IMG/VR virus record: IMGVR_UViG_3300020048_000054
Coordinates: 1 to 64,000 of that record
Strand: one strand, 5' to 3'
Length of the DNA stretch: 64,000 bases
Source: a virus
Position 1 is the stretch's first letter. Each line of letters opens with the position of its first letter. Shown here piece after piece: positions 1-64,000 of the stretch. The notes below the pieces were generated by a model, which made no database searches, was not told the origin of the DNA, and saw nothing but the letters and a program-made list of their open reading frames with translations. The position numbers and the translations under genes were made by a program.

Positions 1-113
1 ATAGGATATCCCGCATCAGCTAATGCCAAATTTAATGCTTTATAGTGCCAATCACAAGCATCAACTAAAACACCATCAAGATCAAATAAAATTGCTTCAA
101 TTTTTAATGCCAT
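1..113 (-). CDS. HAD-family phosphatase, N-terminal fragment (runs off window edge; not in ORF track)
   Basis: Manual translation from ATG at 113: MALKIEAILFDLDGVLVDACDWHYKALNLALADAGYP, which carries HAD motif I (FDLDGVL). Confidence 0.85.
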   Translation of the reverse strand, partial: MALKIEAILFDLDGVLVDACDWHYKALNLALADAGYP

Positions 114-781
114 TTTTTCATATCATTTCTAATAAGAGAGTGTTTTCCACAATTATATTCCCCATTCATGAATGGAGGATTTAGATTAATATATCTTATT
201 TTAGAAATACCATTACATTTATTTTTTGCTAAATGATACATTAAAAGATCTTCACCATTAACAACACATCCTTCAGAATGATATGAGTGTATATTGTTGT
301 ATACAGAAGAATATACATCCATATCATTTGGTCTTGCAATTGCAAACTGATCATGAACTTCTGTTGCTTGTGTACTAGAACGAGTATCGCAAAAATACAT
401 TTTAGTTATATCTAATTGGTTAAAATCAATTTTGGTATTTAATGCAAAATCAAATCTGCTTCTAATTACCCAATCATATTCTATTTTAGAATGTTTTCTA
501 AGCATATCTGCATATGCAATTGATCTATACATCAATATTGTATTTCTAGCAGGATGACTATCCGAAACTATTCTGTAATTTGGAAAATTATCAAAAATAG
601 AATCTTCTTCGATCAGTGCATCTTTTGGCTTATATAACTCTATAGCATTTCTGTCCCAATTTTTAGCCCATGTATGAAAAAATACATCAACATCATAATG
701 ATTTAATAAATTTTGTTTGATATATTTGTATCCTTCAGATACAGATCTAAGTTGTCCAGATAAAACTAATGCTATTTTCAT
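104..781 (-). CDS. Putative glycosyltransferase-like protein
   Basis: KIALVLSGQLRS N-terminus, VFFHTW, YDWVIRSRFD and DQFA motifs typical of viral glycan-cluster proteins; start moved to 781 (ATGA overlap with upstream stop). Confidence 0.6.
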   Translation of the reverse strand: MKIALVLSGQLRSVSEGYKYIKQNLLNHYDVDVFFHTWAKNWDRNAIELYKPKDALIEEDSIFDNFPNYRIVSDSHPARNTILMYRSIAYADMLRKHSKIEYDWVIRSRFDFALNTKIDFNQLDITKMYFCDTRSSTQATEVHDQFAIARPNDMDVYSSVYNNIHSYHSEGCVVNGEDLLMYHLAKNKCNGISKIRYINLNPPFMNGEYNCGKHSLIRNDMKKWH

Positions 782-1575
782 GACAAATTCCATTTACTGG
801 TGTCTATACGATCATACTGATGAATGATTGAAATAGAAGTTCCATCAATTTGTGGAATTAATGTTTCATCCCATGTTGGTTTTTCTATGAGACTATCTCT
901 AAATTTATGAACACCAACTGTCCCTAAATGAACCATGAGTCCGGCTGAAGGTCTAGTCATGGCAATATTTTCAGAACCAAATTTTGTTCCCATAATAATA
1001 TTAAAAGAAGATTGATCAGAAACGCCAGCAGGGTTGTGGTAACACATAGTAAAAATTAGTAAGCAAAGATCAGCAACTGCTTCTACTGTGCCACAAAGAA
1101 CACCAACATTACATATTTCATTGTTTTTGAATTCTTCATGAACATAACTAAATCCTTCCATCAGATTGCCATTTCCCCAACTTTCATCTTTATAACATAT
1201 AGATTCGCTGCCGCATACTATATCTTTTTTGGTTTTCTTCATTATAGAAAGAAGTTTAGGAAATGGATCATTTGCAAAATAAACATCTCTACTGTCGGTT
1301 ATAACAACATGAGAATACTTATCTTTCACAGACATCAAGTATTTGTACTGCAGCAAAAATCTCATATCGTGAGGTAATTTATTTGTTTGTAGTTTATAAC
1401 CAATTCCTGTTGTGCCATTTTGTTCACAGCTTTTAATCACATCATCATTAGAATTTAGCAATAAATTGCAAACATCGTGTCCTGTATCTTTAGCAGACAT
1501 ATTCCATCGTTTAATTGTATTCCAATCATAACCACTAGATGTTGACAGAAATAGTTTCTTTTTAGTTTCGCTCAT
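778..1575 (-). CDS. Putative GT-A fold glycosyltransferase
   Basis: VVITDSRDVYF, NVGVLCG, SDQ and C-terminal HQYDR motifs; cluster context. Confidence 0.65.
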   Translation of the reverse strand: MSETKKKLFLSTSSGYDWNTIKRWNMSAKDTGHDVCNLLLNSNDDVIKSCEQNGTTGIGYKLQTNKLPHDMRFLLQYKYLMSVKDKYSHVVITDSRDVYFANDPFPKLLSIMKKTKKDIVCGSESICYKDESWGNGNLMEGFSYVHEEFKNNEICNVGVLCGTVEAVADLCLLIFTMCYHNPAGVSDQSSFNIIMGTKFGSENIAMTRPSAGLMVHLGTVGVHKFRDSLIEKPTWDETLIPQIDGTSISIIHQYDRIDTSKWNLS

Positions 1576-1599
1576 AATAAATCTTTCTTAATGTATAAA

Positions 1600-2391
1600 T
1601 TATAGTTCAAATTGTGAAATGTCAATGGAAATTGGAGAATCTTGGTGAATTGCTACTGCATTGTTTCCTTTATACTGAACATTATATTTATTCTTAGTTA
1701 AAAACAAATGTAGTGCATTTTTATCAGATTTAGAATGTTCAAAGTATATTGTTGGTTTAAATTTGTTGATCGAATGTTCTGCACCCATAAACACATCTTC
1801 TTCCATTCCTTCAACATCCACTTTTAATAGGTCTATTCGTTCAAGATTTAAAGAATCAACAGTTATAAGAGGAATTGAATATGAGTCCGAATAGTCTATG
1901 GCTTGACCTATCCATTCACCATTATCTCTTTTCTTAATCTCTAGACTGCCAAATGAACTATTTTTTGAATAATCAACTGTAGGAACATTCATGCTTCCAT
2001 TTTCTTTTCCTACAGCAACATTTTTAGCAGTAACATTAAAACAATTGTTGAGTGCTATAGATCCACATAAAGCATAATAAATGTATTCTTGTGCTTCAAA
2101 TGCATATACATGTCCCCATTCAGACATTAATTGGGCCCACTCAATTGTATGAACACCAATATTAGCACCACAGTCAAGAGCAATAACACCATCACCAAAA
2201 ACTTCTTTGTGTTGTGTTAATATCTGTTTAGTTAAATCAATTTCGGGCATATCGTAATAACCTCTTCTCATAATTTGACTGCCAACGCCCCAAAATGGCA
2301 TTAATTCATCAAATTTATTAAGAATAAGTTTTCCATGATGTGTTTGCATTACCTGAAAAGGTTGCATATTTCTGTTTGTTTTGTTTTTCAT
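1600..2391 (-). CDS. FkbM-family SAM-dependent methyltransferase
   Basis: LDCGANIG, YAFEA and LLKVDVEGME motifs. Confidence 0.9.
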   Translation of the reverse strand: MKNKTNRNMQPFQVMQTHHGKLILNKFDELMPFWGVGSQIMRRGYYDMPEIDLTKQILTQHKEVFGDGVIALDCGANIGVHTIEWAQLMSEWGHVYAFEAQEYIYYALCGSIALNNCFNVTAKNVAVGKENGSMNVPTVDYSKNSSFGSLEIKKRDNGEWIGQAIDYSDSYSIPLITVDSLNLERIDLLKVDVEGMEEDVFMGAEHSINKFKPTIYFEHSKSDKNALHLFLTKNKYNVQYKGNNAVAIHQDSPISIDISQFEL

Positions 2392-2404
2392 AAAATATCC
2401 ATAA

Positions 2405-3061
2405 TTAATTTACAATAGATTCATCCCAATATTGACCACTTAAAGAAGAAGGATGATTTAAACTTTGTGTTGCTAGGGGTGGCTGAAACCAATAATTGTT
2501 TAAAGAAAATTTCTTTACAAGGTAGTTATAATAGTGGTCTGATGGGAGATATACATTTGAGATTTCATTACAAACCTTCTGTGCAAATCTATTGCTTATA
2601 CAAAAAGCATGAGTGCATCTAGAACCTCTGTCTGTTTTATAAACATTTACATTGGGAACTTGTGGTTCTCGAAGATTAAAACAACTACCGACCCAACCAA
2701 TATCCCAATCTTCTGCCATTTGAGACTTATATTTGTTAAAATGTTTTATAAAATTTTTGCATAATACTGCATCATCTTCTAATACCAATACTGATGAATA
2801 CTTCTTTTCTAACATATCTTTAATTATCCAGACATGTTTAAGAGTTAAAGATTTCTCAGCAGATGTCATTTTATTTTCTGGATGATTAATCATTGGATAT
2901 TGTATAGAAATTGATAAATTGTCTATAGTATCTTTATCATAATGTTCCACAAACTGATAATTAGTTATACCAAGATCTTGTAGCTGGTTTAGTATAAATT
3001 GTTTTCTATCTGTTAGTTTAGAATAATGGCAAACATAGATTTGATCTACATGCATTTTCAT
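2405..3061 (-). CDS. Glycosyltransferase family 25-like
   Basis: SLTLKH..W, LVLEDDA, CTHAF and D..Y motifs. Confidence 0.8.
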   Translation of the reverse strand: MKMHVDQIYVCHYSKLTDRKQFILNQLQDLGITNYQFVEHYDKDTIDNLSISIQYPMINHPENKMTSAEKSLTLKHVWIIKDMLEKKYSSVLVLEDDAVLCKNFIKHFNKYKSQMAEDWDIGWVGSCFNLREPQVPNVNVYKTDRGSRCTHAFCISNRFAQKVCNEISNVYLPSDHYYNYLVKKFSLNNYWFQPPLATQSLNHPSSLSGQYWDESIVN

Positions 3062-3744
3062 AAAGAATCTATAACTTTCTTTGTTTGTTGTTCATCTCTC
3101 CAGTGTTTTTTATCTGTATATAATACATCGGACTCTGGGTGCCTAAAGTGAACATATCCATGATAATCCCAAAGATATGCCCTTGTCTTTGTTGTATCTT
3201 TATTATGATTGATAAATTCATCAGTTTTTGTGTAGATGTCATTATCCTTAAAATATTCTTTAATTGACTGAGAATATACAACAGGACCAGTTAATTCTAA
3301 AATATCATTTGTTGTTTTGTTTGTTATATTGAAGATACACTTTTCAATACAAATTTTTAAAATCTCATGATTGGGTGGATAAATTAAACACCACTGAGCA
3401 AATTTTCCATAGTTTTTTTCTCTACTAATAATTGCACAATCATCGATTATTAATTCATCTAATTTGCCATAGATTACAGAATCTATATCCAAATAAACAC
3501 CACCATGTTTAAATAAAATAAGATATCTCCATAAATCTGCTTTTGCAGCACCAACTGTTAGTGATTTATATGCCAAATAAATAGTTTGATTAAAGTTACT
3601 TTTAATAAACTCATCAATATCAGTATCATCATACAACTGATATGAATAATTAAAATTTTGTTCCATCATCAAATTTATAGCATTTTGAATTGGTTCTGGT
3701 ATATCTTTTTTGTACCAAGTTTGATAAATTATTTTTGGTATCAT
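3058..3744 (-). CDS. Glycosyltransferase family 32 (Och1-like, DXD)
   Basis: IPKIIYQTW, KADLWRY, GGVYLDID and TGP motifs. Confidence 0.9.
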   Translation of the reverse strand: MIPKIIYQTWYKKDIPEPIQNAINLMMEQNFNYSYQLYDDTDIDEFIKSNFNQTIYLAYKSLTVGAAKADLWRYLILFKHGGVYLDIDSVIYGKLDELIIDDCAIISREKNYGKFAQWCLIYPPNHEILKICIEKCIFNITNKTTNDILELTGPVVYSQSIKEYFKDNDIYTKTDEFINHNKDTTKTRAYLWDYHGYVHFRHPESDVLYTDKKHWRDEQQTKKVIDSL

Positions 3745-4589
3745 AGTAATCTACATGCAATTTGTTTGCACATTCCTTCCATCGAGAAGTACTCATTATA
3801 CAATTTATGTGCAGTCTTTACCATTTTTTCTATTTGTTTATCAGAATAGCTGGACAATATTTCTTCTAAATCATTTATCTGTTCTGGTTTAATCAATACA
3901 CAAAATTCTGACCAATCTAATTCATCAGACCATGGTAAATAATGAGAGTCAGAAATATAAACTGGCACAGAACCTAATTGCATGGTTTCATATAATCTAA
4001 AACTACTTTTTCCATATCCTCGTGGACATAGAGTAAATTTACTTTTACATGTAAGAGTTTTAAATAGTGTTAAATTCTTTTTTGGAACACTTGCTGCCCA
4101 ATGCTGCTGAAACGAAAAAATAAAATCTTCATGATTTCCCCATTTTTGTAATAAATTATTTCTTATTGGGTGTGTCATTGATCCAACAAACGAACAAAGA
4201 ATTGTCTTAGACTCATTGATAAACTTATCAGTAACCCTAGAACATATTAATGGAATGGGAATAATATTTCCTTGAGTCCTATTACCACCAGCAGAAAAAA
4301 TTAATGTATCTGTTGGTAATTTTTCCATAGGTCCATCATCATGTTGGCATATAGTAAAATACTTTTTATTAGTATCAATACTATTTAAATGTGATTGAAT
4401 ATCTATTGACGCAACTCCATTTGCTGCATTGCAGTAAATATTTGTCCAGAAAATATCGATGTATTCTCTATCGATGTCTGTTTTATTTTCTTTCCACCAA
4501 TTAGAAAAATATTCTTCCAAATAAAAACCAGTATGATATGGTGGATATACTGGATATACGGCAGGAGGTCTTAATTTATCAGTAAACAT
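3741..4589 (-). CDS. Exostosin-like glycosyltransferase (GT47)
   Basis: SFVGS, SKFTLCPRGYG.SSFRLYE...GSVPVYISD...LPW...DW motif. Confidence 0.85.
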   Translation of the reverse strand: MFTDKLRPPAVYPVYPPYHTGFYLEEYFSNWWKENKTDIDREYIDIFWTNIYCNAANGVASIDIQSHLNSIDTNKKYFTICQHDDGPMEKLPTDTLIFSAGGNRTQGNIIPIPLICSRVTDKFINESKTILCSFVGSMTHPIRNNLLQKWGNHEDFIFSFQQHWAASVPKKNLTLFKTLTCKSKFTLCPRGYGKSSFRLYETMQLGSVPVYISDSHYLPWSDELDWSEFCVLIKPEQINDLEEILSSYSDKQIEKMVKTAHKLYNEYFSMEGMCKQIACRLL

Positions 4590-4591
4590 AA

Positions 4592-5356
4592 TTATCCCGT
4601 AATAAATTTAATGTTATCAATATATTCAACGAGTTGATCTGGCACATCATAATGAATTTCAGTTTGTACATTTTCATTTAATTTAACTTGAATGTAGTTT
4701 GGACACAGAAAAGTAACTAACCCAGATTGAATACATCTGCCAATAAAATTATCAACGGGATTAAAAAGTTGATATTGTTTAACAAGTTCAACTAATTTTC
4801 TTGCTCCAGAATTGGTAACAATATATCCAGTTGTTCCCTCCGTTGTTTCCCAATCAAATACTCCAGGTTTCATACTAATATTCATTCTATCTGTTGTTTT
4901 ATTAAATTGTGATTTCCCTTTTGGAAAATTAGGAGAAACGCTTTGACATATTACCATATCGATGTTATCTAAATTTTCTTCATTGGCAAATCTTTGTATT
5001 TCTTTTCCACTAAAATCTGGATCAGCATCATCTTCCAGTATAAAATATGCTTTTTTATTACTATTAATTAAATCTAACCAAAGCAAATAATGGCTAAAGA
5101 AACAACCAACTTCACCTATTTTCATCCATCCCCGCACAGAAAACGCATCACCAATTTTCATATTGGTATTTAAATCAACACACAAATCTTTATAACAAAA
5201 TGTTTTGTTATTTCTTGTTATATTTGTTTTATCAGCAGCATCAAAAAAATCAAAAGAAATGTTTTTTGATTTTAAATTGTCTTGTATTTGGTTTCTTCGA
5301 GGAGAACCAATTCTACTAATAACTTTAACTTGCAATTCATTATTTAAATAAACCAT
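4592..5356 (-). CDS. Glycosyltransferase family 25-like
   Basis: FFDA, GEVGCFFSH..W, ILEDDA, GTTGYIVT..GA.KL and PVD motifs. Confidence 0.85.
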   Translation of the reverse strand: MVYLNNELQVKVISRIGSPRRNQIQDNLKSKNISFDFFDAADKTNITRNNKTFCYKDLCVDLNTNMKIGDAFSVRGWMKIGEVGCFFSHYLLWLDLINSNKKAYFILEDDADPDFSGKEIQRFANEENLDNIDMVICQSVSPNFPKGKSQFNKTTDRMNISMKPGVFDWETTEGTTGYIVTNSGARKLVELVKQYQLFNPVDNFIGRCIQSGLVTFLCPNYIQVKLNENVQTEIHYDVPDQLVEYIDNIKFITG

Positions 5357-6039
5357 AGATTTTCCTGTTTAAATTTATTTATTTTAGTATCAATACCAAC
5401 CATATGGTTATTATGAACTATAACTGCATTTAATTTTTCCCCCAGAGTATAATACACATACCCATTTGGAAATACTTTTTGGTTCAATAATGCACATTCT
5501 TTTGCATATTCTGGTGTGCTTTGAATAATATTATTAATTAAAATTTGATCATCTTCGTCTATATTACTACCACAAATACGAACTATAGCTTCACTAGCTG
5601 GTGTGTTATTAAACACCATAAATCCAGAACAAATAATAGAACCTGGAATATCACATTGAAATAATGTTTTGTCACTGTTCTCAATGAATTTCATCGGGTT
5701 TTGTATAAAAACAATGTCAGTATCAACCCAGCATAATGACTTATACTGTTCATGAATCTGGGAAATAAGTTTCCATTTTGACTTAACTATTTTTCTAAAA
5801 TTACTATTAGGATCAAACGACCAATCTTGATATCCAGTTAGATTATTGTTTTCATAATCTCCATATAAAAACGCACCGGGATAAGTTTTTAATCCCTCAT
5901 ATGAATCTTTGTCCAAACATGCAATGATAAAATCATCAGTATTGAGTCCGACAATTTTGGCGGATTTTAACATATTCTTGCATATTTCCAAACACCCAGA
6001 ATTAAGTTGAGTTAAAAATTTCATTACACTAGTCTCCAC
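5344..6039 (-). CDS. Nucleotide-diphospho-sugar transferase (GT77-like)
   Basis: WVDTDIVF..NP, CSGF, DDQ, FPNG, VHNN and K..K...LW motifs; true start may be the second Met (6024). Confidence 0.8.
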   Translation of the reverse strand: METSVMKFLTQLNSGCLEICKNMLKSAKIVGLNTDDFIIACLDKDSYEGLKTYPGAFLYGDYENNNLTGYQDWSFDPNSNFRKIVKSKWKLISQIHEQYKSLCWVDTDIVFIQNPMKFIENSDKTLFQCDIPGSIICSGFMVFNNTPASEAIVRICGSNIDEDDQILINNIIQSTPEYAKECALLNQKVFPNGYVYYTLGEKLNAVIVHNNHMVGIDTKINKFKQENLWFI

Positions 6040-6866
6040 AAAGTATCATCTGCCATTTCTAAGTTCATAACTCGATTCAAATTCTCATGAACTGCGTTTA
6101 GTTTAGACTGATATAGTTCAGTAGTCAAACTATTAATATTAAATTGTGAATCTAAAACTATAATGCCATTGATATCAAACACATCACCTATTGTTGGGCT
6201 TCCCAAATAAACAGGTATAGTTCCTGTTGCAAAACAATCGGTGATCTTTTCTGTATAGTAGTTGTCATAGAAGTCATTTTCAACAACTACGGAGAACATA
6301 TAATCTTTAAGACCATACATCTTACTCATCCAAGGTTGAGTTGGGTCTGTATCAGGAAGACGAGGAGAACCACAAGCACCACCAAAAAGGTCTAGATGAT
6401 CTTTAAATCGTTCTGCATACCCATGACGAATCATATGTCCTTTAGTAATTCGTTTAGCAGACGCAACCATGTTTACTAATTTAGTTTTAGGGTATACTGA
6501 ATACTGACTCTCAGGTATCCAAGGTAAATTACTGCCAGCTGAGCAATAGTGAAACACCGAAGACAAACTCACTAGCTGTTTATCTGAGACAAATATGCGT
6601 TTAAATTTGTTTTCTAATTCTTTATAATTTTTAGCCAAAAAAATTGAAGTATCAGAAACAATAGAACGAGACTCACATACCCAGCCATATAGATTATTCA
6701 CCTCAATAGGAATTAAATCGTAATGAGGTATTGCATTGTCTATTAATACCAATGTATTTAAATTTTGATGTGGTGGAATTTCCCATTGAAAATTCTTTGG
6801 TTTGCGCGTAGAGCAAGAAGAGTGCTGAGGCTCAAACGGAAATCCCAATCCATATAAAATATTCAT
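6024..6866 (-). CDS. Fucosyltransferase-like protein (GT10)
   Basis: YMFSVVVEN....YYTEKITDCF..GTIPVYLG motif. Confidence 0.8.
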   Translation of the reverse strand: MNILYGLGFPFEPQHSSCSTRKPKNFQWEIPPHQNLNTLVLIDNAIPHYDLIPIEVNNLYGWVCESRSIVSDTSIFLAKNYKELENKFKRIFVSDKQLVSLSSVFHYCSAGSNLPWIPESQYSVYPKTKLVNMVASAKRITKGHMIRHGYAERFKDHLDLFGGACGSPRLPDTDPTQPWMSKMYGLKDYMFSVVVENDFYDNYYTEKITDCFATGTIPVYLGSPTIGDVFDINGIIVLDSQFNINSLTTELYQSKLNAVHENLNRVMNLEMADDTLWRLV

Positions 6867-7522
6867 GAATTAACTCGTAAGAAAGAATCACCAGGCGATT
6901 GCCATTCAATCAGCTCATCGTTATATCCCATGTTTTTTAATACTTCCTTCTTAGATGGCATATCAGATAATCCCATCATGAGTACTGTATTAGAAGTCTG
7001 AGCGCCAGGCCATTGGCAATATTCTTCTCCAAGAATAGCGATCTTTCTTTCTTTGAGATATTTACCTAAGCAGTGTAAAAAAGTTTCATGATCAAATATA
7101 TTGCCTTTAAGTGTTTTGACTTTTTGGCATTCATCTATCCATGTTTTAACAAATTGTAAAGTTTCAATATTGTAATTGAACCAAACAGGAGATGCTTTAA
7201 TTCGCACTAAATTGTTTACATCAGTAGATGCAACTGCAATGTTTACACCCAAAGTACTCAAGTTCTCAAATGCAACAGGTGGTTTGCATATGTAAGTGTC
7301 GATATCCAACCACATTAGTGGTTTTTTATGCTCCATTAGCTTTGAGTATATAAAGCTAGGTTTAATTAGGCAATTGTTTTGATAACTACCTTGCGATTCA
7401 AGATGTACCACATCATATGGCAAAGAAAAGCGAGTACATTCTTCGATGAATCGCTTTGCGTGGTCGCTGTAGTATGTTCTTTCGTCTACATCACAAAAAT
7501 AACTTATCACTTGAGTTTGCAT
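6863..7522 (-). CDS. Putative GT-A glycosyltransferase
   Basis: KPSFI and LMWLDID (DXD) motifs, FDHE; first gene of the cluster. Confidence 0.6.
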   Translation of the reverse strand: MQTQVISYFCDVDERTYYSDHAKRFIEECTRFSLPYDVVHLESQGSYQNNCLIKPSFIYSKLMEHKKPLMWLDIDTYICKPPVAFENLSTLGVNIAVASTDVNNLVRIKASPVWFNYNIETLQFVKTWIDECQKVKTLKGNIFDHETFLHCLGKYLKERKIAILGEEYCQWPGAQTSNTVLMMGLSDMPSKKEVLKNMGYNDELIEWQSPGDSFLRVNS

Positions 7523-14197: not shown

Positions 14198-14203
14198 GAT
14201 ATT

Positions 14204-32064: not shown

Positions 32065-32503
32065 TATTATCCAATGCCTTTCTTCTACTTCGACCTTGAT
32101 TTACAAGATCTTGCAGATCACTCGTAGAACCAACATATATCGCATTTGTTGTGTTATTATTCACTGTGATTTTTTCTTTTTCAATTTCTTTTTTTTGCTG
32201 ATATAGACCCATTAGATCTTTGTTCATCTCAGCTAGCTGTTTTGCAAAGTTAGAAACAACTTCGAATCCACGAGGAGAATCTAGACTTTCTGCCAGTGAT
32301 ATTGCATTCTCTAGGCTATCTTTACCCTTGTCTATTAATTCTTTCAGATTAAGTCTTGCATATTCAAAATCATTATCCATTCTTTTGTCTGCAGGAATTC
32401 CCTCTGCTACTTTTACTTGTCTTAATTCTTTCTTTGGGGCAGAAAAATCAACTCCAAGACTTTCGGATATAGTATCAAACACTTTTGGAATATTTTCTTT
32501 CAT
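32042..32503 (-). CDS. gp16: Terminase small subunit
   Basis: DFEYAR.NL, SPRGFEV and NAIYVGSTSDLQ. Confidence 0.93.
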   Translation of the reverse strand: MKENIPKVFDTISESLGVDFSAPKKELRQVKVAEGIPADKRMDNDFEYARLNLKELIDKGKDSLENAISLAESLDSPRGFEVVSNFAKQLAEMNKDLMGLYQQKKEIEKEKITVNNNTTNAIYVGSTSDLQDLVNQGRSRRKALDNNEEQQSK

Positions 32504-34085: not shown

Positions 34086-34086
34086 A

Positions 34087-38101: not shown

Positions 38102-38102
38102 A

Positions 38103-41963: not shown

Positions 41964-41974
41964 TAGTTATTCTC

Positions 41975-47730: not shown

Positions 47731-47731
47731 G

Positions 47732-48943: not shown

Positions 48944-48952
48944 CTATGTTCC

Positions 48953-50056: not shown

Positions 50057-52023
50057 GATTGTCCTATCTCAGTGCTATCATATCCCGTTATAGAACTAGT
50101 AGTAGTAAAGTATCTAAAATCTTTTTGGATCATTATTATGGGTCCTGTTACTCCAGTTGTTGGATTGTACTTATATACTTCTAATATTGTAGATATTCCA
50201 AATTGTCCGGGAGTATTATTACTCGCATAATAATTATCAATAGAAGGAAAAGCTATAGATACAGTCTCTGGAATTGGTCCAGTAGTTGCATTCCAACCTA
50301 ATATAGAAGTGTCTAGTGTATAACCATTCGTATCAGCAACATCAAACAATGCTGCATGTGCAATTGTGTTTATATAACCAGAAATTATTGATCCGGTTAG
50401 AATAACCGAATTAAATTTCCAACCATAAACTCTATGACGTTCGTTCCGTATGCTAATATCACGACTCCAACTAAGATTATAATCATTTTTGATATATGTT
50501 GTTGGATATACACCACTACTGCTTAAACCACCAATAGCAGTGCTTGCAGTTATACCCAAAGATCCACTCAATGTTGTTCCGTAAGGTAGACGAATTACTG
50601 GAGTCATTATATCAGTTGTTGGTGTAATGGTACTTACAATAGACGACCAACGAGAAGAACCCAATCCAAATGCATTTATATAATTAGATTGAGTGAACTG
50701 ATCTGGAGCTAGAGTACCTACACCAAGCTGCTCAAATTGTAAAAAGTTTCTATTATTAACATCACCACCACCATCCATATTTGCTGATATTAGTGCAACA
50801 TTTTTCATTCTATATTCTGTGTATGTTTGAGTCCATTCTCCTTCCACTGGAGTCTCGCCTCGTTCAAATTCAGATGTCCAGTTTGATGCTGCAATATTAT
50901 TATAGAATTTATTTATTACAAAATTAGTTCTAACCGGTTTTTCCCCATTTATATGAGTTATTCTAATTTGATGTAATCTATATACATCATCTAAAGTTCC
51001 TAGTGTTGATAAATAAATTTTATTATCAGGGGTATGCTTAGTTATATGTTCAAATCCGCTTTGTCCACTTCCTACAGTTTTTATACTTTTGCCGTATATA
51101 GCAGGGACTTGAAAAACTCCAGAAGTAGTATATGGATATGAGGGAGTTTCTGGATTGATATTTAAACTTTTTGTTAAATTACCAAATACATTATTATCAC
51201 CATACTTAATATTATTAACAGCATGTATATGACCAGTAGTTTTTCTATTAGCTTCATTATCTGTACCTAAGTATAAAGAAGCAGTCAAGCCGTTAACACT
51301 CAAGACTCCATTAAAGACTCCATCAAAAGAACCACCAGACACACCTTGTACTATTGTAGTGTTTCCGAGAGTACCCTCTGTTGCAATAAATCCACGGTAC
51401 GGAAGAATTAAACCACTATCTCCTGTTAATCCGAGAAGCATTGGTTTAGAAACATATAAAGTTACATCAGGTTCGAGCGTTGTACCCGCACCAGAGACAC
51501 CACCGCTCAGAAAGTAAACTACACCCTTCTGTAGAGTAGCACCGGGAGTACCAGTAAATGACGAAATGATAGATGAACCACTGATTCTACCAGTAGTGGC
51601 AACTTGAACATTGTCACCAGTAAATCCTGTAACAATACCAACAACTTCAGCTGTGCATTCATCGTCTGCTAATGCCTTTTGTGCTTTACCAGTAGAATCG
51701 ACATATACGATATTTCCAACAGTAACCCCAGTGTTTGCAGGCAGAACTATAGTTGTTCCAGAAATATCACCTGCGAAGTTAGAAGTCAGAGTACCATTAA
51801 CCGTAACATTGTTAAATACCATATCTCTGGTAACATTGCCTGATAGACTTAATGTATAACCACCATTTGCAGCAGTATGTGGTGATGCGGTTATTCCGTC
51901 TCCACCAACAATGTTTGCAACATTCAGCGCATTGAGCCGTTGAATCATGATATTATTTTTAGCATACCAACCACCAAATGTGGTTCCTAAACTTAATTCG
52001 GTTATATCAACAAAATCTGCCAT
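50053..52023 (-). CDS. Putative baseplate-attached fibre protein
   Basis: L..TF..W..K.N N-terminus; AEVVGIV...G..YFLS segment paralogous to 47732-48943. Confidence 0.55.
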   Translation of the reverse strand: MADFVDITELSLGTTFGGWYAKNNIMIQRLNALNVANIVGGDGITASPHTAANGGYTLSLSGNVTRDMVFNNVTVNGTLTSNFAGDISGTTIVLPANTGVTVGNIVYVDSTGKAQKALADDECTAEVVGIVTGFTGDNVQVATTGRISGSSIISSFTGTPGATLQKGVVYFLSGGVSGAGTTLEPDVTLYVSKPMLLGLTGDSGLILPYRGFIATEGTLGNTTIVQGVSGGSFDGVFNGVLSVNGLTASLYLGTDNEANRKTTGHIHAVNNIKYGDNNVFGNLTKSLNINPETPSYPYTTSGVFQVPAIYGKSIKTVGSGQSGFEHITKHTPDNKIYLSTLGTLDDVYRLHQIRITHINGEKPVRTNFVINKFYNNIAASNWTSEFERGETPVEGEWTQTYTEYRMKNVALISANMDGGGDVNNRNFLQFEQLGVGTLAPDQFTQSNYINAFGLGSSRWSSIVSTITPTTDIMTPVIRLPYGTTLSGSLGITASTAIGGLSSSGVYPTTYIKNDYNLSWSRDISIRNERHRVYGWKFNSVILTGSIISGYINTIAHAALFDVADTNGYTLDTSILGWNATTGPIPETVSIAFPSIDNYYASNNTPGQFGISTILEVYKYNPTTGVTGPIIMIQKDFRYFTTTSSITGYDSTEIGQS

Positions 52024-54576: not shown

Positions 54577-57500
54577 TTATGCTGATCCAAAAATAAACGG
54601 AAGATTATAATTGTATGTCTCGTATGTCCCATTTACATAAGATCCTACTTTTTTCATTGTATCGATGTTAGCAGTGTAGCCAGCTGGTAATTGATAAGTG
54701 ATGCCATTAGGACCTTGTCTGTTGGTAGGAAAACAAGGACCAACAAATGGATCAAAAACAAAACCATCATAATCAACAGATCTGGCAGAAATCACATCAA
54801 TAGTCCCATTAGATCTAATTCCAATAACAGTGTCAGCAAAAGCATGAATCCATGCAAAGTGATTTTCTAGTTTTTGTTCGTCTGCAATACCCATTACAGT
54901 TATTGTTGCATTCATATCATAATCGTTAACAGGAACACCAGCAGGATTAACAGGTAATTTACCAAAAGCATCCTTATAACCAATAGTTTTTACAATATGG
55001 TTATTATTTATATAATTACTTTCGTATAACAAATGTGCAGGTGCCTGAAGGTCACTAGCAGTATTTCCAAAATACTCGAATGGGGAAAAGCTGTATATAT
55101 CTCCCGTGTTGCCAGGATTTTCTTTTGGTATGTTATATTCTGGATGATAAAATCCATTAAGTTTTATAGGATTTCCCCAACCCATCTGAGTTCCTACTAT
55201 ATGCGCTGAAGGTGGTACATAATGTATATTATCATCAAACATACCAATATTGTCAATAAATCCAGGAACCAGTTTTGGAATGAAAAATCCTGCATATGTA
55301 TTTCCAGATGTAGTTGAAACTAATCCACCAGTTGCACCAAACTTAAACCTTGCGCTTGAAGCAAATCCATAATTGCCATTAAATAATGGGCTATTTCCAT
55401 ATAGACTATAATTCCATTTTGCAGCAGTTAATCCGAAGTCTCCAAGTAAATTTATTTTATTTTTTACAAGCTGAGCACCAATAGATAAGTTTTCACTACT
55501 AGCAGTAACTGCATGAGCAGCACTAAATCCACAAGGAAGTAAAGTTTCATTTGCAGATATTGGAGTCCAATTACCATTGTTTCCTAGTATAGAGATTGTT
55601 CCACTTCCCAGTGCGCCGCCTGATATTTCAGTGTTAGGAAGACCTTTAAAGAATCTAAGAATAGAAACACATCTGGGCGGAACATACATCAATTCCCGCA
55701 CACCATCTACTACTATAGTTACACCAAAAATTACATCATATAATTCTTTATCAAAATCTATATTAGCACTGTACGACCAAGTACCAGAAACTGAATTATA
55801 TACTGCAGAATATCTTTGTATCTTTTTTAACTTATCTCTCAAATATGGCACAGAAGAATTATAATCCATAAATTTTACCACTTCACACATCTGAGTTGGG
55901 TGTGCAAAATTATCAACATTGGTTGGTAGATATCCAGTGTAATTAGGATCTACACATACAGCAACTCCTCCACTTTGATAACCACCACGCACATTAATAA
56001 CCGGAAATCTTCTTCCGGCTGAAGGTCCGGTTAAAACTTTTGGTATTAAATTCAATGCATATGCCACTTCTTTACACATACCGTTTGTAACAGGTACTCC
56101 AGTATTAAAAAGACCATTCCATATGTATTTTTGTTTAAATTCATCACCCCCCAAACTAAGTTTTCTGTTTACACCATCGGAGTTTGGAACGATTGCAGAA
56201 TCCCTTGCGCCAATTGTACCAAAAAGAGGATGTCGGTTTTTAGTGCCTGTTGTGAACTTTTGTCTTGGTACTGCAGAACTACCATCTACAATATCGACAG
56301 CACCATACAAACTAACTCCATATAGTTTTCCGGATTTATGTAAACACCAAACAATTATGTCTTCACTTGGAGATAATAATCCACCGGAAGCAGCAATGTC
56401 AACAAAATCTTTATTCTCAATAAAGACTGCTTCTCCGGAATCGTCAGTAAGAAATCCATCACCAACATAATTTGCATCAAAATATACTAAACGCTTTAAA
56501 TAGATATTTCCAGGACTATCGGCTCGTGAAGCAATTGACTCTGCACTAAAATCAGAAGAAAACAATATACTAACCGAACCAGTCGTGCTTAGCATTACTA
56601 ATGTTTGATCATTACTTTGATCTATTGATTTATATTGAATCGGACTAGCAATATTAAATATTTCTCGCACATTTCCTAGAGTTGGATGTGTAGTATCAAT
56701 GTCATTTTGTGTTGGTGTATTTAGAATAAGTTTATAAATGGAAGCTGTAGGACTGTCTGGATCATTATTATATGCTGTTCTTGGTACACTAATTTTTCTT
56801 TCACTACTTGTTATAAAAGTACCACCAATATATCCAGCTGCTATTGAATATTCATTAGATCCCTTAACTTCGTTTGTTCCAAAATCAAACCATTGATATT
56901 TTTTAATGTTTGATTTTTGAATTCTGAAAGAAGTTCCCCCTCGTCTTTGGGTATCTCCAACATCATAGTATGAATTCAAAGGACCTGCTTCCACAGTTGG
57001 TGAAGTTTGAATCCAATTACTAACATACTTAGCCAGGCTTATACCTCTTAGGCCAAGGGAATTGTCTGCGAGGATTGTTGTTAAGTATTCATTAGCTCCA
57101 GACTTATCTGTCCCTTTGCCGGCAGCTCCTCCCAAAAAAGGAAACGATTCTAAATTACTATTCCAGCTTGATATATCCGAAGAAAGAGCTTCAATTTCGA
57201 ATAAATTTCCAAACGCAGTAAATCCATTAGAACTAGAAACATAAGGAAATTCTGGATATCTTGAATCTATTGCATTAATATTTTCATTTCGTTCAATCAT
57301 AAATCCGTATGTATCCTGATCCGTGAATCTCAACAGATTAAGATCAGATTGATATGCAGTCATTCCTACCGGATTATTCACGCCAGGAGAACAAAACGCA
57401 CATCCACCACTATTGCAGGATGCGTATAAAATATTTGGACTTATTCCATTTGTCGAATCTAGCTCATAAAAACTTCCAATCTTCATATGAGCCAGACTAG

Positions 57501-58671
57501 AACTAATTACATCAGTACTAACATCTGGATCCCACGACGGAACTTTATGTTGGGGAACTGCAACAGCAACTCCGTATGGATCACACTCGTGTGTGCAGCA
57601 ATAGCATGAATAATTTTTCGAAGCATCGCACGCATCGCTAAAATCAAATTGATTATAAAACGCAGAATTTAAAACATCAGATGCTGGATTTGCCGAAAAA
57701 GTAATTCCCGGATTCATTAATAAATATCTTCCAATCACAGGCAATTCTGAAGCTTCACTAGTAATAACACCATCTCCGTTGTTATCCACTCCAGTGTCAG
57801 TGTCAACTAATGGAATATATTGCTCAAAGAATCCTAACATACCTGCAGGATGTGCTCCTGCTAATAATGTGTCTTTGTATGTTATATCACCAGTATTTGG
57901 TGCATCTGATGTTAAAAGATATGAGTATTCTTGCCAGAAATAATCATCAGGCAGAACTGCTTCATTTAATGCGGCACCAAATAGATTGGGGCGACTTTCT
58001 ATATTATAACCAACACCCCCGGCAATAATACCAGCGGCATCAACCGGAGCATCCGGATCAAATCCAAATGGTAGATCAATTATTCCAGTTTCTCCAGAAA
58101 TATTCCAAGATATATCAATATACTTACCACCATTCATTCTCATTAAGTATTTTTTAGGATAATCAATAGTAACATTTGACACATTAAACAGAATTTTTAA
58201 CAAATAGCGATATGAATTTTCTGTACCTTTACTAATTAAGAAGTCTGTCTTAATAGAACGCAAAAACTTTCTAAGATTTTGTCTATCTTCTGGGCTAATT
58301 GCAGCGGGGGTAATAAATGGAGCGTATACTTTTACATACTCATCTAGAAATATATCCGGAACCGAATCAATATTTAATAATTCTTCTATATCATATGGAG
58401 TTAGATTTATGTCTTCTTTTTTAAATCCACAATACATCCAATTGTAATATGCTTGTAAAAATGATACTAAATACTGCTCACCAATATTTGATCCATAATT
58501 TTGATTTATCCAAAATGGAAGTTGACTCTGTATGTCAAGCGGAGAAGTGCAATATGATTCTCCTACAGTTTCTGTTGGTAACCCCTGAAGAAGCTTTAAA
58601 AAAGGAACAACTGACTGATTGACTTCTTCAGTTGGTGCAGTTTGAGGTTGTTTTATAAACGGTAATAGCAT
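54577..58671 (-). CDS. gp7: Baseplate wedge initiator (gp7-like) with a long C-terminal extension
   Basis: QLP.WI, FLQAYY.W, KGTENSY.YL.KILF, D..FWQEYSY and HPAG. Confidence 0.75.
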   Translation of the reverse strand: MLLPFIKQPQTAPTEEVNQSVVPFLKLLQGLPTETVGESYCTSPLDIQSQLPFWINQNYGSNIGEQYLVSFLQAYYNWMYCGFKKEDINLTPYDIEELLNIDSVPDIFLDEYVKVYAPFITPAAISPEDRQNLRKFLRSIKTDFLISKGTENSYRYLLKILFNVSNVTIDYPKKYLMRMNGGKYIDISWNISGETGIIDLPFGFDPDAPVDAAGIIAGGVGYNIESRPNLFGAALNEAVLPDDYFWQEYSYLLTSDAPNTGDITYKDTLLAGAHPAGMLGFFEQYIPLVDTDTGVDNNGDGVITSEASELPVIGRYLLMNPGITFSANPASDVLNSAFYNQFDFSDACDASKNYSCYCCTHECDPYGVAVAVPQHKVPSWDPDVSTDVISSSLAHMKIGSFYELDSTNGISPNILYASCNSGGCAFCSPGVNNPVGMTAYQSDLNLLRFTDQDTYGFMIERNENINAIDSRYPEFPYVSSSNGFTAFGNLFEIEALSSDISSWNSNLESFPFLGGAAGKGTDKSGANEYLTTILADNSLGLRGISLAKYVSNWIQTSPTVEAGPLNSYYDVGDTQRRGGTSFRIQKSNIKKYQWFDFGTNEVKGSNEYSIAAGYIGGTFITSSERKISVPRTAYNNDPDSPTASIYKLILNTPTQNDIDTTHPTLGNVREIFNIASPIQYKSIDQSNDQTLVMLSTTGSVSILFSSDFSAESIASRADSPGNIYLKRLVYFDANYVGDGFLTDDSGEAVFIENKDFVDIAASGGLLSPSEDIIVWCLHKSGKLYGVSLYGAVDIVDGSSAVPRQKFTTGTKNRHPLFGTIGARDSAIVPNSDGVNRKLSLGGDEFKQKYIWNGLFNTGVPVTNGMCKEVAYALNLIPKVLTGPSAGRRFPVINVRGGYQSGGVAVCVDPNYTGYLPTNVDNFAHPTQMCEVVKFMDYNSSVPYLRDKLKKIQRYSAVYNSVSGTWSYSANIDFDKELYDVIFGVTIVVDGVRELMYVPPRCVSILRFFKGLPNTEISGGALGSGTISILGNNGNWTPISANETLLPCGFSAAHAVTASSENLSIGAQLVKNKINLLGDFGLTAAKWNYSLYGNSPLFNGNYGFASSARFKFGATGGLVSTTSGNTYAGFFIPKLVPGFIDNIGMFDDNIHYVPPSAHIVGTQMGWGNPIKLNGFYHPEYNIPKENPGNTGDIYSFSPFEYFGNTASDLQAPAHLLYESNYINNNHIVKTIGYKDAFGKLPVNPAGVPVNDYDMNATITVMGIADEQKLENHFAWIHAFADTVIGIRSNGTIDVISARSVDYDGFVFDPFVGPCFPTNRQGPNGITYQLPAGYTANIDTMKKVGSYVNGTYETYNYNLPFIFGSA

Positions 58672-60824: not shown

Positions 60825-61540
60825 TGTTTGAATTTTCCGAATCGTCTATTATCTTCACTACGCGCCCGTTCTTGTGCGACTATTTGAGCAAGCGATGAAA
60901 CTCCACCATCATCCTTAGATGTATTTAGTTGTAATTCTTTGGATCTTATATCGGGGTTTGAAGATTCAGAGTCTCTAATTAATGTTATTGTCATTCGATG
61001 TCTAAGCATTCCCATATTATGATTAATTGCAGAAACCAACCAATAACCAGAATACCTCTTGCCTGGTACATTTATTCTAATTTTATTACCGGGTCGTAAA
61101 GTAAGATCGCCATTGACAGTTATCATAATTTTATTTGAAAGAATTTGCATCATTTGAGCATTTCGAAGAAGTGGTCTTTCTGGTGGTGTTTCCCAGAAAG
61201 AACAATATGTTTGAGAATACTTTAAGTAATTCAAGAAATTTTCACCCAAACAAGGACAGCTACAGTTTAAATTACTCTTTGGTTCTGCCCAAACACATCC
61301 TAACCAATCTTCTCCTAGAACTTTTTCAATAAGATCACATTCCTTAATATCTTTTTCTAGTTGAATTAATTCTTCATTTGTCGGTTCTGGTCCGGTAATC
61401 CCAACCAGCAGCTTATCCGGTCTAAGTTCCGGGCATGGGCAATTACATAGTGGGTTGGATGGAGGACATGATGAGTTATCCGGAGGAAATGGATTTGCAC
61501 AAGGATAATTAGAACTAAAACTCGTCCAACTATTCCATAT
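60821..61540 (-). CDS. C-terminal part of a gp27-like baseplate hub protein; frame is open from 61540 with no obvious start
   Basis: ITVNGD.TLRPG..I.I....YSGYWLV..I.H....L.RDS; the frame extends 97 codons above the track start as a Cys-rich segment. Confidence 0.65.
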   Translation of the reverse strand: MWNSWTSFSSNYPCANPFPPDNSSCPPSNPLCNCPCPELRPDKLLVGITGPEPTNEELIQLEKDIKECDLIEKVLGEDWLGCVWAEPKSNLNCSCPCLGENFLNYLKYSQTYCSFWETPPERPLLRNAQMMQILSNKIMITVNGDLTLRPGNKIRINVPGKRYSGYWLVSAINHNMGMLRHRMTITLIRDSESSNPDIRSKELQLNTSKDDGGVSSLAQIVAQERARSEDNRRFGKFKQ

Positions 61541-64000
61541 TCAGTTTCTCCCGAAATATCATTTTTCCATACGGCTTTCTGTATTTCTGTTGATAGTAAT
61601 GCAGTTGGTACTGCTGGATGTTTCCAGGCAGATACTCCATAATAATAGCCAAAGAATGTAGTTTCATCTTCTGGTTTAATTCTAGCATTTCTATTCCGTA
61701 AATCTACCTCAAAGAATGCTCCCCATGAACCTGTTCTTTCAGCTCCAGGATCATACGACGCATAAGACTTAAAATATTCGGTGTCGATAGGAAGTGCCTG
61801 CACACCTACTGTTTGCACATACATAAAGACATTTCCGGGAATTAATAAATCGTAAATATCATTTCTTACTGTAGCATCAATAGAAGAACTAGATCCATCT
61901 CCGTAATAACCTGTGCTACTACTTGTAGAACTATATGGATTAGTTATCCAAGTTCCTTCGTACGATCCTCCTACGAAAGATGACTGACCAACTGCTCCAT
62001 ATGGTCTTACATTATTAAATTCAAAATATGAATTGGGTAATGCTAGTGGATTTATTCTAGTAGCTCTTTTTATTAAATCGTGATAAAATATTTCATTTAA
62101 AGTTCCAGGATTAAAAATTCTTTCGGAAAGATTAGGAGTGTATGTTCTTACATTTCCAACATTATCTTTTACTATTAAAGTTTGATCAGAATTCGCAATA
62201 GAAGTTTGGCTTAGATAAAATGTATTGTTGAGCGAAGTTCCCGTATTGATAGCTCCCAATACTCCATAATTAGATACTATATTATTGAAAATTACACCGT
62301 TTCGAACAGTGTTGGAAATTCTGGCATTTTCACCATACGATATTGGAGAATCTAATACTTGCTTTTGATCGTTTATATCGTTTGTTGAAGTAGAAGTCGC
62401 GTTTCTATCATAGGTGTTGATTCCTTTTAAATATCCAGCAGTAACCGTGTGATAATCTGTACTGTTTACTAGTGCTTTATTTTCTGGTTTTAGACTTTGT
62501 TTCTTTTTACGGATTCGTTTAACAGCAACGTCAAATCCATATGGATCTTGTCCTAGTACTGAGATATTATAATCTGCAGACTTTGCTCCGAATGGACCTG
62601 TAGTTAACATTACATGATATGGCAAATAGTATTCAGATCCCGGAGTATCATAGAATCCCTTTGGGAAATCGTATAAAGTATTTGCACCAATTGGTTGAAT
62701 AAACTCAATTCGAACAAAACTTTCAAGCTCTTCTAATACGTTCTCTATTGGACGTTTTGCTTCGTCACCTGCATCTGGTTCTTGAATGTTTGTAAAATTT
62801 CTAGAATTCAAATACTCAATCGGATTGAAATCAGGAATTCTCTCTAATCCGAATGGCTGAACAACACAAATACCAGTTGGTAATTGAGTACTATTTTTAT
62901 TGTCGCTGTATATCTCTGCAATATCACAAGTTATTGTGATGGTTGTTATATCTTCTCGATTATTACAATTTAAAGGATCTAAAGGTGGAGAAATTAAAGT
63001 TACAACTACTGTATTATTACCAATGTATTCAACATTGGTGCTAGAATATCTGTCTGATGTTAAATTGATACCAGAAACTTCATTAACTAATATATTTTTT
63101 ATTAATTTATTTTGTTCTAAATTTTCTACTAAAATATCTTTTTGTGTGAAATTTTTATTCTCTTCTATTGTTGTAATTTGTCTTCGAGGTTCACATGTAA
63201 AACTGGGGGGGATGTCAACGCCATCGGTGCCGAATTCGTCAACTCCGCCATCATTGCCGGGGCCGTTACCATCGATACCTGGATCATAAACTGCTATGTG
63301 TTGCAACGTATTTGTTACTCTTTTTACCTTTGCTTGGAATGCTATAAAGTATTCAAACACTCCTGTTGGATTTCCTGCTGCACCTGAGTCTGGCCCACCA
63401 GCTGGATCAAATGAAGAGAAGAAAGCATTGGCTCCAGCTCCTAAATCAAAATTATATCCAGAATCATAATATGGATGTTTAATTTTAGGATTTATAGATT
63501 TATCATTATCATAAAATATATCATAAGGGTAATACGAAGTCACACCAGCAGAAAACCCCTTAAAATTAGCAGTGACACCTGATAATCCCAAATTAGCAGT
63601 GGCACCTGATAATCCATATAGTAATTGTTTAAGAACTTCTTTGTGTGCTAATTTTTCATACTTACTACCACGAATAGGAATACGAGTAATGCTTTTAACA
63701 TTAAACAGATTCAATGGAGCAGAATTTGCAGTAAACCCTACTTCTTTAGAAACAAAGAATGCTTTTCTTTTTGTGTATTCTTCATATACAGTTGCAAACC
63801 TTGTTTTTTCTATCTCTATTATGTTTCTCATATTATTAAAATATGGAGAAGCTAATAGTTCCTTACGGTTAGTAATTGGATCTGTGTATGTACTTTTTAT
63901 AAAAGTTTGTTTGTCTTCATTCGTGCAAAAACAATTGGCTACAAATCCTGTACCACCCCCGGAAGATTCACCACAATAGTAATCAGATAGTGGAAGGCCA
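61366..64000 (-). CDS. Large structural protein, 5'-truncated; probably the upstream part of the same hub gene, frameshifted near 61530
   Basis: Frame is open to the window end; the last ~50 codons read as off-frame sequence. Confidence 0.6.
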   Translation of the reverse strand, partial: GLPLSDYYCGESSGGGTGFVANCFCTNEDKQTFIKSTYTDPITNRKELLASPYFNNMRNIIEIEKTRFATVYEEYTKRKAFFVSKEVGFTANSAPLNLFNVKSITRIPIRGSKYEKLAHKEVLKQLLYGLSGATANLGLSGVTANFKGFSAGVTSYYPYDIFYDNDKSINPKIKHPYYDSGYNFDLGAGANAFFSSFDPAGGPDSGAAGNPTGVFEYFIAFQAKVKRVTNTLQHIAVYDPGIDGNGPGNDGGVDEFGTDGVDIPPSFTCEPRRQITTIEENKNFTQKDILVENLEQNKLIKNILVNEVSGINLTSDRYSSTNVEYIGNNTVVVTLISPPLDPLNCNNREDITTITITCDIAEIYSDNKNSTQLPTGICVVQPFGLERIPDFNPIEYLNSRNFTNIQEPDAGDEAKRPIENVLEELESFVRIEFIQPIGANTLYDFPKGFYDTPGSEYYLPYHVMLTTGPFGAKSADYNISVLGQDPYGFDVAVKRIRKKKQSLKPENKALVNSTDYHTVTAGYLKGINTYDRNATSTSTNDINDQKQVLDSPISYGENARISNTVRNGVIFNNIVSNYGVLGAINTGTSLNNTFYLSQTSIANSDQTLIVKDNVGNVRTYTPNLSERIFNPGTLNEIFYHDLIKRATRINPLALPNSYFEFNNVRPYGAVGQSSFVGGSYEGTWITNPYSSTSSSTGYYGDGSSSSIDATVRNDIYDLLIPGNVFMYVQTVGVQALPIDTEYFKSYASYDPGAERTGSWGAFFEVDLRNRNARIKPEDETTFFGYYYGVSAWKHPAVPTALLSTEIQKAVWKNDISGETEYGIVGRVLVLIILVQIHFLRITHHVLHPTHYVIAHARNLDRISCWLGLPDQNRQMKN
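63563..63616. repeat. 27-bp tandem duplication
   Basis: aaattagcagtgacacctgataatccc / aaattagcagtggcacctgataatcca (25 of 27 identical). Confidence 0.85.

Follow-up and report, generated by a model that had tools for sequence, protein, structure and literature searches.

The first 64,000 nucleotides of IMG/VR virus record IMGVR_UViG_3300020048_000054 (hereafter the window) come from an uncultured, aquatic myovirus of the T4 type, and the outward-facing proteins of its tail share a short motif, G-x-T-[GAYLF]. We propose that the threonine of this motif is the acceptor for O-glycosylation by enzymes of the phage itself. An enzyme resembling SgtA of Clostridioides difficile would start the glycan, and the products of a gene island that begins in the window would extend it. 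The glycan may shield the particle or serve in adhesion. On the sequence evidence, we give this proposal a probability of about 0.5. A sequence-only reading of the same DNA had already suggested that a motif with Thr or Ser marks sites for a methylated glycan that coats the whole virion. That interpretation is partly supported.

The pattern noted in the sequence-only reading was G-x-[ST]-[GAYLF], said to recur in unrelated structural proteins. We counted it in 25 structural and 31 non-structural open reading frames (ORFs) and in shuffled versions of the same proteins. The structural ORFs hold 139 sites, compared to 57 after shuffling whole proteins and 63 after shuffling blocks of 20 residues (z about 10). 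The non-structural ORFs hold 13 sites with 15 expected. Hence the recurrence is real, and it exceeds Gly/Thr composition in the structural ORFs only. A scan of all tripeptides and gapped 4-mers, which is not biased towards any pattern, ranks GIT first (32 vs 7.0 expected) and G.TG first (41 vs 9.8). With Thr in the third position, the structural proteins carry 94 sites with 31.5 expected (3.0-fold, z 12), and G-[IVL]-T-[GAYLF] alone occurs 37 times with 6.5 expected. The x position is chiefly Ile, Val or Ala. The Ser form is only slightly enriched (45 vs 32, z 2.5). The fourth position is specific as well: G-x-T before any other residue is depleted (0.69-fold), and shifted or substituted control patterns give ratios of 0.9 to 1.3.

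Several trivial causes of this excess can be rejected. Global and local shuffles exclude an artefact of composition. GIT is encoded by 18 codon combinations, and 33 of the 35 GGN-ATH-ACN matches lie in the reading frame. Thus selection acts on the amino acids and a signal at the DNA level is excluded. Collagen register does not cause the excess either. There are just 19 collagen-like runs of 3 to 5 G-x-y triplets each, and long uninterrupted Gly-X-Y runs are not present. When runs of at least three triplets are masked, 115 of the 139 sites remain, still twice the 57 expected. The sequence-only reading had likewise placed the motif outside collagen register, apart from two or three short runs. 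Paralogy or recent duplication is rejected too, since the sole likeness among the structural proteins lies in the Cys-rich modules of three fibres.

The sites with Thr are concentrated in particular parts of the particle. All genes of the window, and hence all features located in it below, are on the minus strand. The tail sheath (391 aa, 29166..30341) has 6 sites with 1.2 expected. The neck proteins gp15, gp14 and gp13 (annotated by PHROG, 32500..34893) have 1, 3 and 2 sites with 0.2, 0.6 and 0.5 expected, and those of gp14 are located in a C-terminal extension. Six fibre-like genes (38103..52023) hold 63 sites with 17.1 expected; three of them open with short collagen-like G-x-T runs of 3 to 5 triplets. 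A gp7-like baseplate protein (1364 aa, 54577..58671; PHROG) has 12 sites with 2.6 expected. A structural gene of 1518 codons, whose 3' part lies at 61366..64000 and which extends to 65922 in the genome, has 17 sites of the form G-x-[ST]-[GAYLF] over the whole protein (6.3 expected). Tube, portal, scaffold, protease, gp6 and gp25 together have none with Thr (3.4 expected; 0.4 for the tube by itself). The major capsid protein (2 vs 1.5) and the enzymes (6 vs 6.3) are at chance level.

The same division is found in two syntenic IMG/VR relatives, G001 (88.6 kb) and G003 (63 kb). Their orthologues, fibres included, are mostly 35 to 64% identical to the proteins of the window, and capsid, portal and gp13 are 84 to 88% identical. 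In the outer virion parts, 94 sites with Thr are observed in the window (28.1 expected), 80 in G001 (24.1) and 83 in G003 (22.7). In the internal and assembly proteins the corresponding counts are 0 (3.4), 1 (2.6) and 0 (2.3). The fibre orthologues have equal motif density at 34 to 58% identity. The gp7-like protein is much longer in the window than in G001 and G003 (435 to 472 aa), and the extra part carries many motif sites.

Because the motif occurs in unrelated folds, it points to a reader that acts in trans and not to the requirement of a single fold. Two claims of the sequence-only reading have to be narrowed here. Coverage of the whole virion does not hold, since tube, portal, scaffold and inner baseplate lack the motif and the capsid is at chance. 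Near absence from the enzymes does not hold either, since the motif shows no excess there but is not depleted.

For the sheath, we read an AF2 model (pLDDT 85.6) for secondary structure. The model matches T4 gp18 and the sheaths of pyocin and of the antifeeding prophage (AFP) in fold, and represents a minimal sheath of two domains. Six of the eight G-x-[ST]-[GAYLF] sites fall in Gly-rich loops (residues 35-38, 70-86 and 154-173). Of the six sites with Thr, the model puts four in the loops 70-86 and 154-173, and the other two fall at a helix N-cap and within a strand. The expectation that the motif lies in loops is thus borne out for most sites of the sheath and contradicted by the N-cap and strand sites. 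The number of sites per protein varies little across 80 homologues of the sheath, with a mean of 6.7. Some sites are conserved, and further ones arise in lineage-specific inserts. The T4 sheath has 659 aa; the short sheath marks the whole clade with motif excess.

The threonines of the motif are conserved. In the orthologues from G001 and G003, at about 55% identity, 82% of motif threonines are kept as Thr, compared to 44% of other threonines (Fisher p 5e-19). Change to Ser is rare (4%). Serines in the motif are conserved no better than other serines. Together with the weak enrichment of the Ser form, this removes Ser from the sequon in which the sequence-only reading had included it.

The motif excess is a trait of one clade. 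The structural proteins of T4 (54 vs 48.7 expected), of pelagiphage HTVC008M (88 vs 83.7) and of cyanomyophage S-SKS1 (63 vs 52.9) show none. Our survey took in about 100 IMG/VR loci around sheath genes. A 1.3- to 4.3-fold excess is found at nearly every locus with a short sheath (39 to 99% identical), two short contigs being the exceptions, while the ratio in ordinary T4-like phages averages about 1.0 to 1.1. A generic trait of T4-like structural proteins is therefore rejected by the three cultured phages and by about 45 outgroup loci.

The second element of our proposal is an island of roughly 20 genes that follows regA. Its ends are conserved and its middle is swappable, and the glycosyltransferase (GT) cluster of the window (1-7522) is its start. 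The first gene after regA (6863..7522) encodes a glycosyltransferase of GT-A fold with an invariant W-x-D-x-D in alignments (WLDID in the window). The best Foldseek matches of its AF2 model (pLDDT 73) are XXT1 and A64R of chlorovirus PBCV-1 (E about 3.5e-6), although the resemblance is generic, with a TM score of about 0.55 and, for A64R, 12 to 13% identity. The second gene (6024..6866) encodes a GT10-like enzyme of the fucosyltransferase type (Pfam PF00852, 3.2e-7), with alpha-1,3-fucosyltransferases as matches in the PDB. Across clade loci the first gene is 62 to 97% identical and the second 46 to 98%. The pair is kept in every relative that reaches past regA and has a gp45 at least 71% identical. 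It is also kept in the locus L036 (gp45 48% identical), where the first gene is 36% identical. No homologue of the pair was found in L154 and L155, which are the clade contigs at the greatest distance, although GT-like genes still follow regA in both.

The next genes belong to the interchangeable middle. A nucleotide-diphospho-sugar transferase (Nucleotid_trans, PF03407, 1.7e-14; 5344..6039) is 56% identical to an S-SKS1 gene. It is followed by a GT25 enzyme (PF01755, 7.4e-23; 4592..5356), which among solved structures matches bacterial GT25 proteins and, more weakly, procollagen galactosyltransferase 1. An exostosin/GT47-like enzyme (PF03016, 2.5e-24; 3741..4589) is 47% identical to a gene of S-SKS1 and 44% identical to one of megaphage LR756501. 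A GT32-type enzyme with a DXD sugar-binding region (PF04488, 2e-15; 3058..3744) has an initiation-specific alpha-1,6-mannosyltransferase as its best solved relative (6e-8). Another GT25 enzyme (PF01755, 3e-15; 2405..3061) is 27.5% identical to a gene of the S-SKS1 cluster, and an FkbM-family methyltransferase follows (PF05050, 5.7e-20; 1600..2391). Two further genes have weak GT-like matches below the Pfam cut-offs. One matches the GT domain of PLOD, a collagen glucosyltransferase (GT_PLOD, 1.7e-3; 778..1575), and has no match among solved structures. The other (DUF7796, 1.2e-3; 104..793) is 69% identical in L036 and a distant paralogue (23% identity) of a second island gene, at 15862-16575 of contig L033. 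At 1..113 the start of the contig cuts a gene for a HAD-family hydrolase, of which the first 37 codons with the motif FDLDG are translated.

The island continues on L033, a nearly identical IMG/VR contig (96 to 100% protein identity across 21 genes). The HAD gene is complete there, starts identically and matches HAD_2 with 5.5e-32. It is followed by a nucleotidyltransferase, an S-adenosylmethionine (SAM) methyltransferase, unknown genes and a protein of 405 aa to which we return below. Strains with 96 to 99% identity in gp44 and gp45 can still differ in the middle of the island. In the cassette of one such strain, L151, a gene for a protein similar to the RuBisCO large subunit (L151:8282-9475, Pfam 1.1e-35) stands inside the island beside a nucleotidyltransferase gene and a further FkbM gene. 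The island of the G001 lineage has two GT2 genes, a DegT aminotransferase and a GT34-like gene, and a more distant relative adds a gene similar to GDP-mannose dehydratase. For the G001 lineage the link rests on a sister contig, G006, with identical gp45; G001 itself stops at gp45, regA is missing from G001 to G005, and no single contig joins island and structural genes there. In outgroup contig L158 and in HTVC008M regA is directly followed by the DNA polymerase gene, and the island is absent.

Much of what the sequence-only reading said about these genes stands in a reduced form. It counted about nine GT-like enzymes; six are GTs at the Pfam level and the gene at 6863..7522 is a GT of GT-A fold, whereas two ORFs have weak matches only. 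Of the HAD phosphatase, the window holds the first 37 codons. Methylation of the glycan is suggested only by FkbM, whose gene is located in the interchangeable middle. Motif and GT genes should co-occur in relatives: island and motif do share the limits of the clade, but S-SKS1 has a contiguous sub-cluster of four of the GT genes of the window plus two further matches (23 to 56% identity) and no motif excess.

The enzyme that may start the glycan is the protein of 405 aa on L033. Its gene (L033:18496-19713) lies about 11 kb past the start of the window. An N-terminal GT2 domain of GT-A fold (PF00535, 1.6e-12, residues 10-130) is followed by putative C-terminal tetratricopeptide repeats (TPRs), and we refer to the protein as GT2-TPR. 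The matches to TPR_17, TPR_2 and TPR_19 (6.5e-5 to 2e-3) are below curated cut-offs, and TPR families are precomputed for many homologues. Among all PDB sequences, GT2-TPR matches only GmaR of Listeria, SunS and the entry 7msk (E 4e-8 to 1.5e-5). The entry 7msk is ThuS, a relative of SunS. GT2-TPR appears to share the architecture of SgtA and GmaR, and it is the best candidate for the initiating enzyme.

Five of five clade records contain GT2-TPR, among them the strain whose cassette differs and the sister contig of G001. At 77 to 96% identity it is better conserved than sheath or fibres. Five outgroup fragments (29 to 71% complete) have no GT2-TPR, and neither has S-SKS1. Because S-SKS1 has GT genes without GT2-TPR and without the motif, the motif goes with GT2-TPR; the presence of GT genes, or of a GT cluster, does not by itself predict it. 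The window-encoded enzymes, which the sequence-only reading took as the source of the coat, do form a real cluster, yet the best candidate for initiation lies outside the window. GT2-TPR belongs to a very large environmental family. At E <= 1e-5 the family has at least 6975 proteins, of which the best 120 clusters are all at least 62% identical, and some members are encoded on contigs of up to 156 kb. This indicates that the phage group is abundant.

Among cultured phages, 12 records of the collection encode a homologue of GT2-TPR, and none of them is T4-like. An independent lineage, Tunturiibacter phage Tunturi_5, encodes its homologue (37% identical) at a distance of 4 kb from a tail fibre of 1469 aa with (GPT/GAT)n repeats. 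This fibre has 72 motif sites with 16.5 expected, and 48 of the 49 GxTGxTG matches of the 308-kb genome. GT2-TPR, annotated as a beta-1,4-glycosyltransferase, and a nucleotidyltransferase stand back to back with the fibre block (L169, record 28905-38126). In the fibre, collagen segments of (GPT/GAT)n alternate with globular modules that are themselves repeated. The 735-kb megaphage LR756501 has a homologue that is 30% identical, and its (GPT)n genes are far from the enzyme. In the megaphages with GT2-TPR homologues, no gene rich in the motif lies within 20 kb of the enzyme.

Of the known systems, SgtA with its substrate BclA3 comes closest. SgtA consists of a GT-A domain followed by TPRs and transfers O-GlcNAc onto Thr in the GPT repeats of BclA3, a collagen-like exosporium protein, and sgtA adjoins bclA3 (PMC7157674). 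Both enzymes are soluble and have an N-terminal GT-A/GT2 domain, followed in GT2-TPR by putative TPRs. In both systems the acceptor would be a Thr in G-x-T-G, the first sugar would be extended by other enzymes, and the substrates include surface fibres. The position of GT2-TPR beside the (GPT)n fibre gene of Tunturi_5 parallels that of sgtA beside bclA3. Unlike BclA3, the proteins of the window have no long GPT repeats; their sites are mostly isolated tetrapeptides in non-collagen sheath, neck, baseplate and fibre shafts.

Other systems share parts of this picture. GmaR, an O-GlcNAc transferase of Listeria flagellin, and SunS and 7msk, S/O-glycosyltransferases of glycocins, modify proteins or peptides within the cytoplasm, as we propose for GT2-TPR. 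However, identity to them is low, they use flagellin or small peptides without G-x-T as acceptors, and GmaR is also a transcription anti-repressor. GTs of mycobacteriophages decorate the virion proteins of their own phage, where capsid and tail-tube subunits carry the glycans at their C-terminal ends (Freeman et al. 2023, as summarized in PMC12619734). In the window capsid and tube are precisely not enriched, and hosts, GT families and the motif-based pattern over many proteins differ as well. Chlorovirus PBCV-1 similarly decorates its own structural protein with an unusual glycan by means of soluble cytoplasmic GT-A enzymes (A64R) and methyltransferases, but this virus is a eukaryotic one and its glycans are N-linked to the major capsid protein. 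Large T4-like cyanomyophages (S-SKS1, S-SCSM1/2R, P-SSM2) carry GT clusters with epimerases that are usually ascribed to changes of the host surface (PMC12801897). These "LPS/cell-wall" (lipopolysaccharide) clusters likewise hold many small, soluble GTs of several families together with sugar-nucleotide enzymes, and they too occupy a variable region of the genome in T4-like marine phages. Unlike the island, they sit elsewhere in the genome and no GT2-TPR was found in them.

We envisage the following mechanism. The motif would mark the outward-facing parts of the tail, namely sheath, neck, outer baseplate and fibres. Soluble GT2-TPR would add the first sugar to the motif threonine in the cytoplasm of the host. 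The conserved enzymes encoded at 6863-7522 and 6024-6866, together with those of the interchangeable middle, would then build an oligosaccharide specific to the strain. In the window this middle consists of two GT25 enzymes, the GT32-like and GT47-like enzymes, the PF03407 transferase and FkbM. Nucleotide sugars would be supplied in part by genes found in the island on sister contigs, a nucleotidyltransferase, the HAD hydrolase, a dehydratase/epimerase and an aminotransferase.

More broadly, and only tentatively, we suggest that an abundant aquatic clade of T4-like phages combines a Thr sequon on unrelated outer tail proteins with an SgtA-like initiator and an interchangeable cassette, such that sister strains wear different coats ("phage serotypes"). 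Compared to SgtA and BclA3, two things would be new: the minimal G-x-T-G unit as isolated sites in many non-collagen virion proteins, and a glycan locus organized like a cassette. To our knowledge, general virion glycosylation with a readable sequon has so far not been described for phages of Gram-negative or aquatic hosts.

Several observations weigh against Thr glycosylation of the tail. The gene for GT2-TPR is neither in the window nor on the 109-kb contig to which the window belongs, and is known from L033 instead. Motif, island and GT2-TPR have one shared origin, so their coincidence counts as a single evolutionary event. The partition into outer and internal proteins is our own and was drawn after the data had been seen. 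In the sheath, T48 is a near-invariant helix N-cap and GVTY lies within a strand; these sites are plainly structural. The comparison with SgtA is imperfect, since x is mainly Ile, Val or Ala here and not Pro as in BclA3, and SgtA accepts Ser in vitro (PMC7157674), unlike the Thr preference observed here. In Tunturi_5 the dispersed motif shows hardly any excess once collagen runs are masked (181 vs 153). Finally, no late-promoter consensus was seen in the window part of the island.

The main rival explanation is that the motif is purely structural, a turn-plus-strand or a short polyproline-II or collagen-like element favoured by the Gly/Thr-rich beta-structures of which the fibres and surface loops of this clade are made, and that the island serves something else. 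The N-termini of the fibres do resemble beta-solenoids or short collagen segments, and the N-cap and strand sites of the sheath are conserved over 36 to 96% identity. A strict Thr that rarely changes to Ser fits a beta-branched structural residue, and S-SKS1 has homologous GTs without the motif. Yet we regard a purely structural motif as rather unlikely. The excess occurs in unrelated folds (sheath loops, the tail of gp14, the gp7-like protein, fibres) and in this clade only, while the homologous proteins of T4, HTVC008M and S-SKS1 do without it. The sheath sites lie mostly in Gly-rich loops (6/8; 4/6 for Thr) and not in regular structure, new copies appear in lineage-specific inserts, and the fourth position is specific, G-x-T with another residue there being depleted.

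The island could also remodel the envelope of the host or build another glycoconjugate, with the motif unrelated or read by a kinase, a chaperone or a cross-linking enzyme. GT/epimerase clusters of cyanomyophages are usually explained in the former way (PMC12801897), the four-gene sub-cluster and two further matches are common to S-SKS1, and hypervariable gene content is typical of surface-glycan loci. We nevertheless consider this distinctly unlikely: none of the 17 island proteins examined has a clear membrane anchor, and we did not find a flippase, a polymerase or a lipid-priming transferase among them. In addition, the most conserved enzyme of the island is related only to protein and peptide glycosyltransferases, and island, GT2-TPR and motif share the same clade boundaries. 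Still another possibility is that the island glycosylates modified bases of the phage DNA, as in T4 and other phages, and that the motif has nothing to do with it. Phage GTs are classically DNA-modifying, and a pyridoxal-phosphate (PLP) enzyme and a large methyltransferase are encoded nearby (12599-14992). But the island, whose roughly 20 genes include methyltransferases, sugar-nucleotide enzymes and at least seven GT families, is far larger than the gene sets known for DNA glycosylation, Pfam scans show no similarity to the alpha- or beta-glucosyltransferase of T4, and the relatives of GT2-TPR act on proteins or peptides. DNA glycosylation is therefore very improbable.

If Thr glycosylation of the tail is correct, virion glycosylation extends from a few mycobacteriophages to widespread environmental T4-like phages. 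The motif would be the first phage glycosylation sequon that can be read from sequence, and metagenomes could be searched for virion proteins predicted to be glycosylated. Phages would differ along a new axis of diversity, that of glycan cassettes exchanged on a conserved protein scaffold. Such cassettes would bear on host recognition, on the stickiness of particles, on grazing and decay in water, and on recognition by antibodies or lectins. The hypothesis can be tested without a phage culture, as the GT2-TPR enzyme and short peptides can be obtained from sequence.

The remainder of the window is that of a T4-like myovirus with about 35% G+C. The window comprises bases 1-64000 of one incomplete contig (genome G000). 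According to profile searches, the GT cluster (1-7522) is followed by regA, gp62, gp44, gp45, RNase H, gp46, gp47, gp55, UvsW and UvsY. Then come the head genes gp23, gp22, gp21 and gp20, followed by gp19, the sheath, gp17 and gp16. Next are gp15, gp14 and gp13, seven fibre-like genes (35525-52023), and the gp8-like gene, the gp7-like gene, gp6, gp25 and a large hub-side gene. No close cultured phage was found at the DNA level; the capsid protein shares about 58% identity with its counterparts in cyanomyophages and in HTVC008M.

Some minor observations concern other parts of the genome. The T4 late-promoter consensus TATAAATA is scarce in the window (3 matches vs 9 expected). CTAAATA is not over-represented in the window overall, and its copies on the minus strand are mostly in the structural region. 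Between gp46 and RNase H (12599-14992), a protein of 532 aa with a DNA-methylase-like C-terminus is encoded beside a PLP-enzyme-like gene (threonine-dehydratase PHROG), and both are 70 to 79% conserved in G001. Among gapped words in the structural proteins, G-x-C-C ranks second in over-representation (12 vs 1.8). Its source is the Cys-rich modules that three tandem fibre genes (35525-47730) have in common, the only paralogy detectable among the structural proteins. Beyond the window, on the plus strand, the genome encodes a protein of 419 aa rich in Thr, Gly, Ser and Val (G000 72905-74164; L120:8905-10164) that has no PHROG match. It is 74 to 76% identical in G001 and G003, has 11 G-x-[ST]-[GAYLF] sites with 3.8 expected, and is probably another virion protein.

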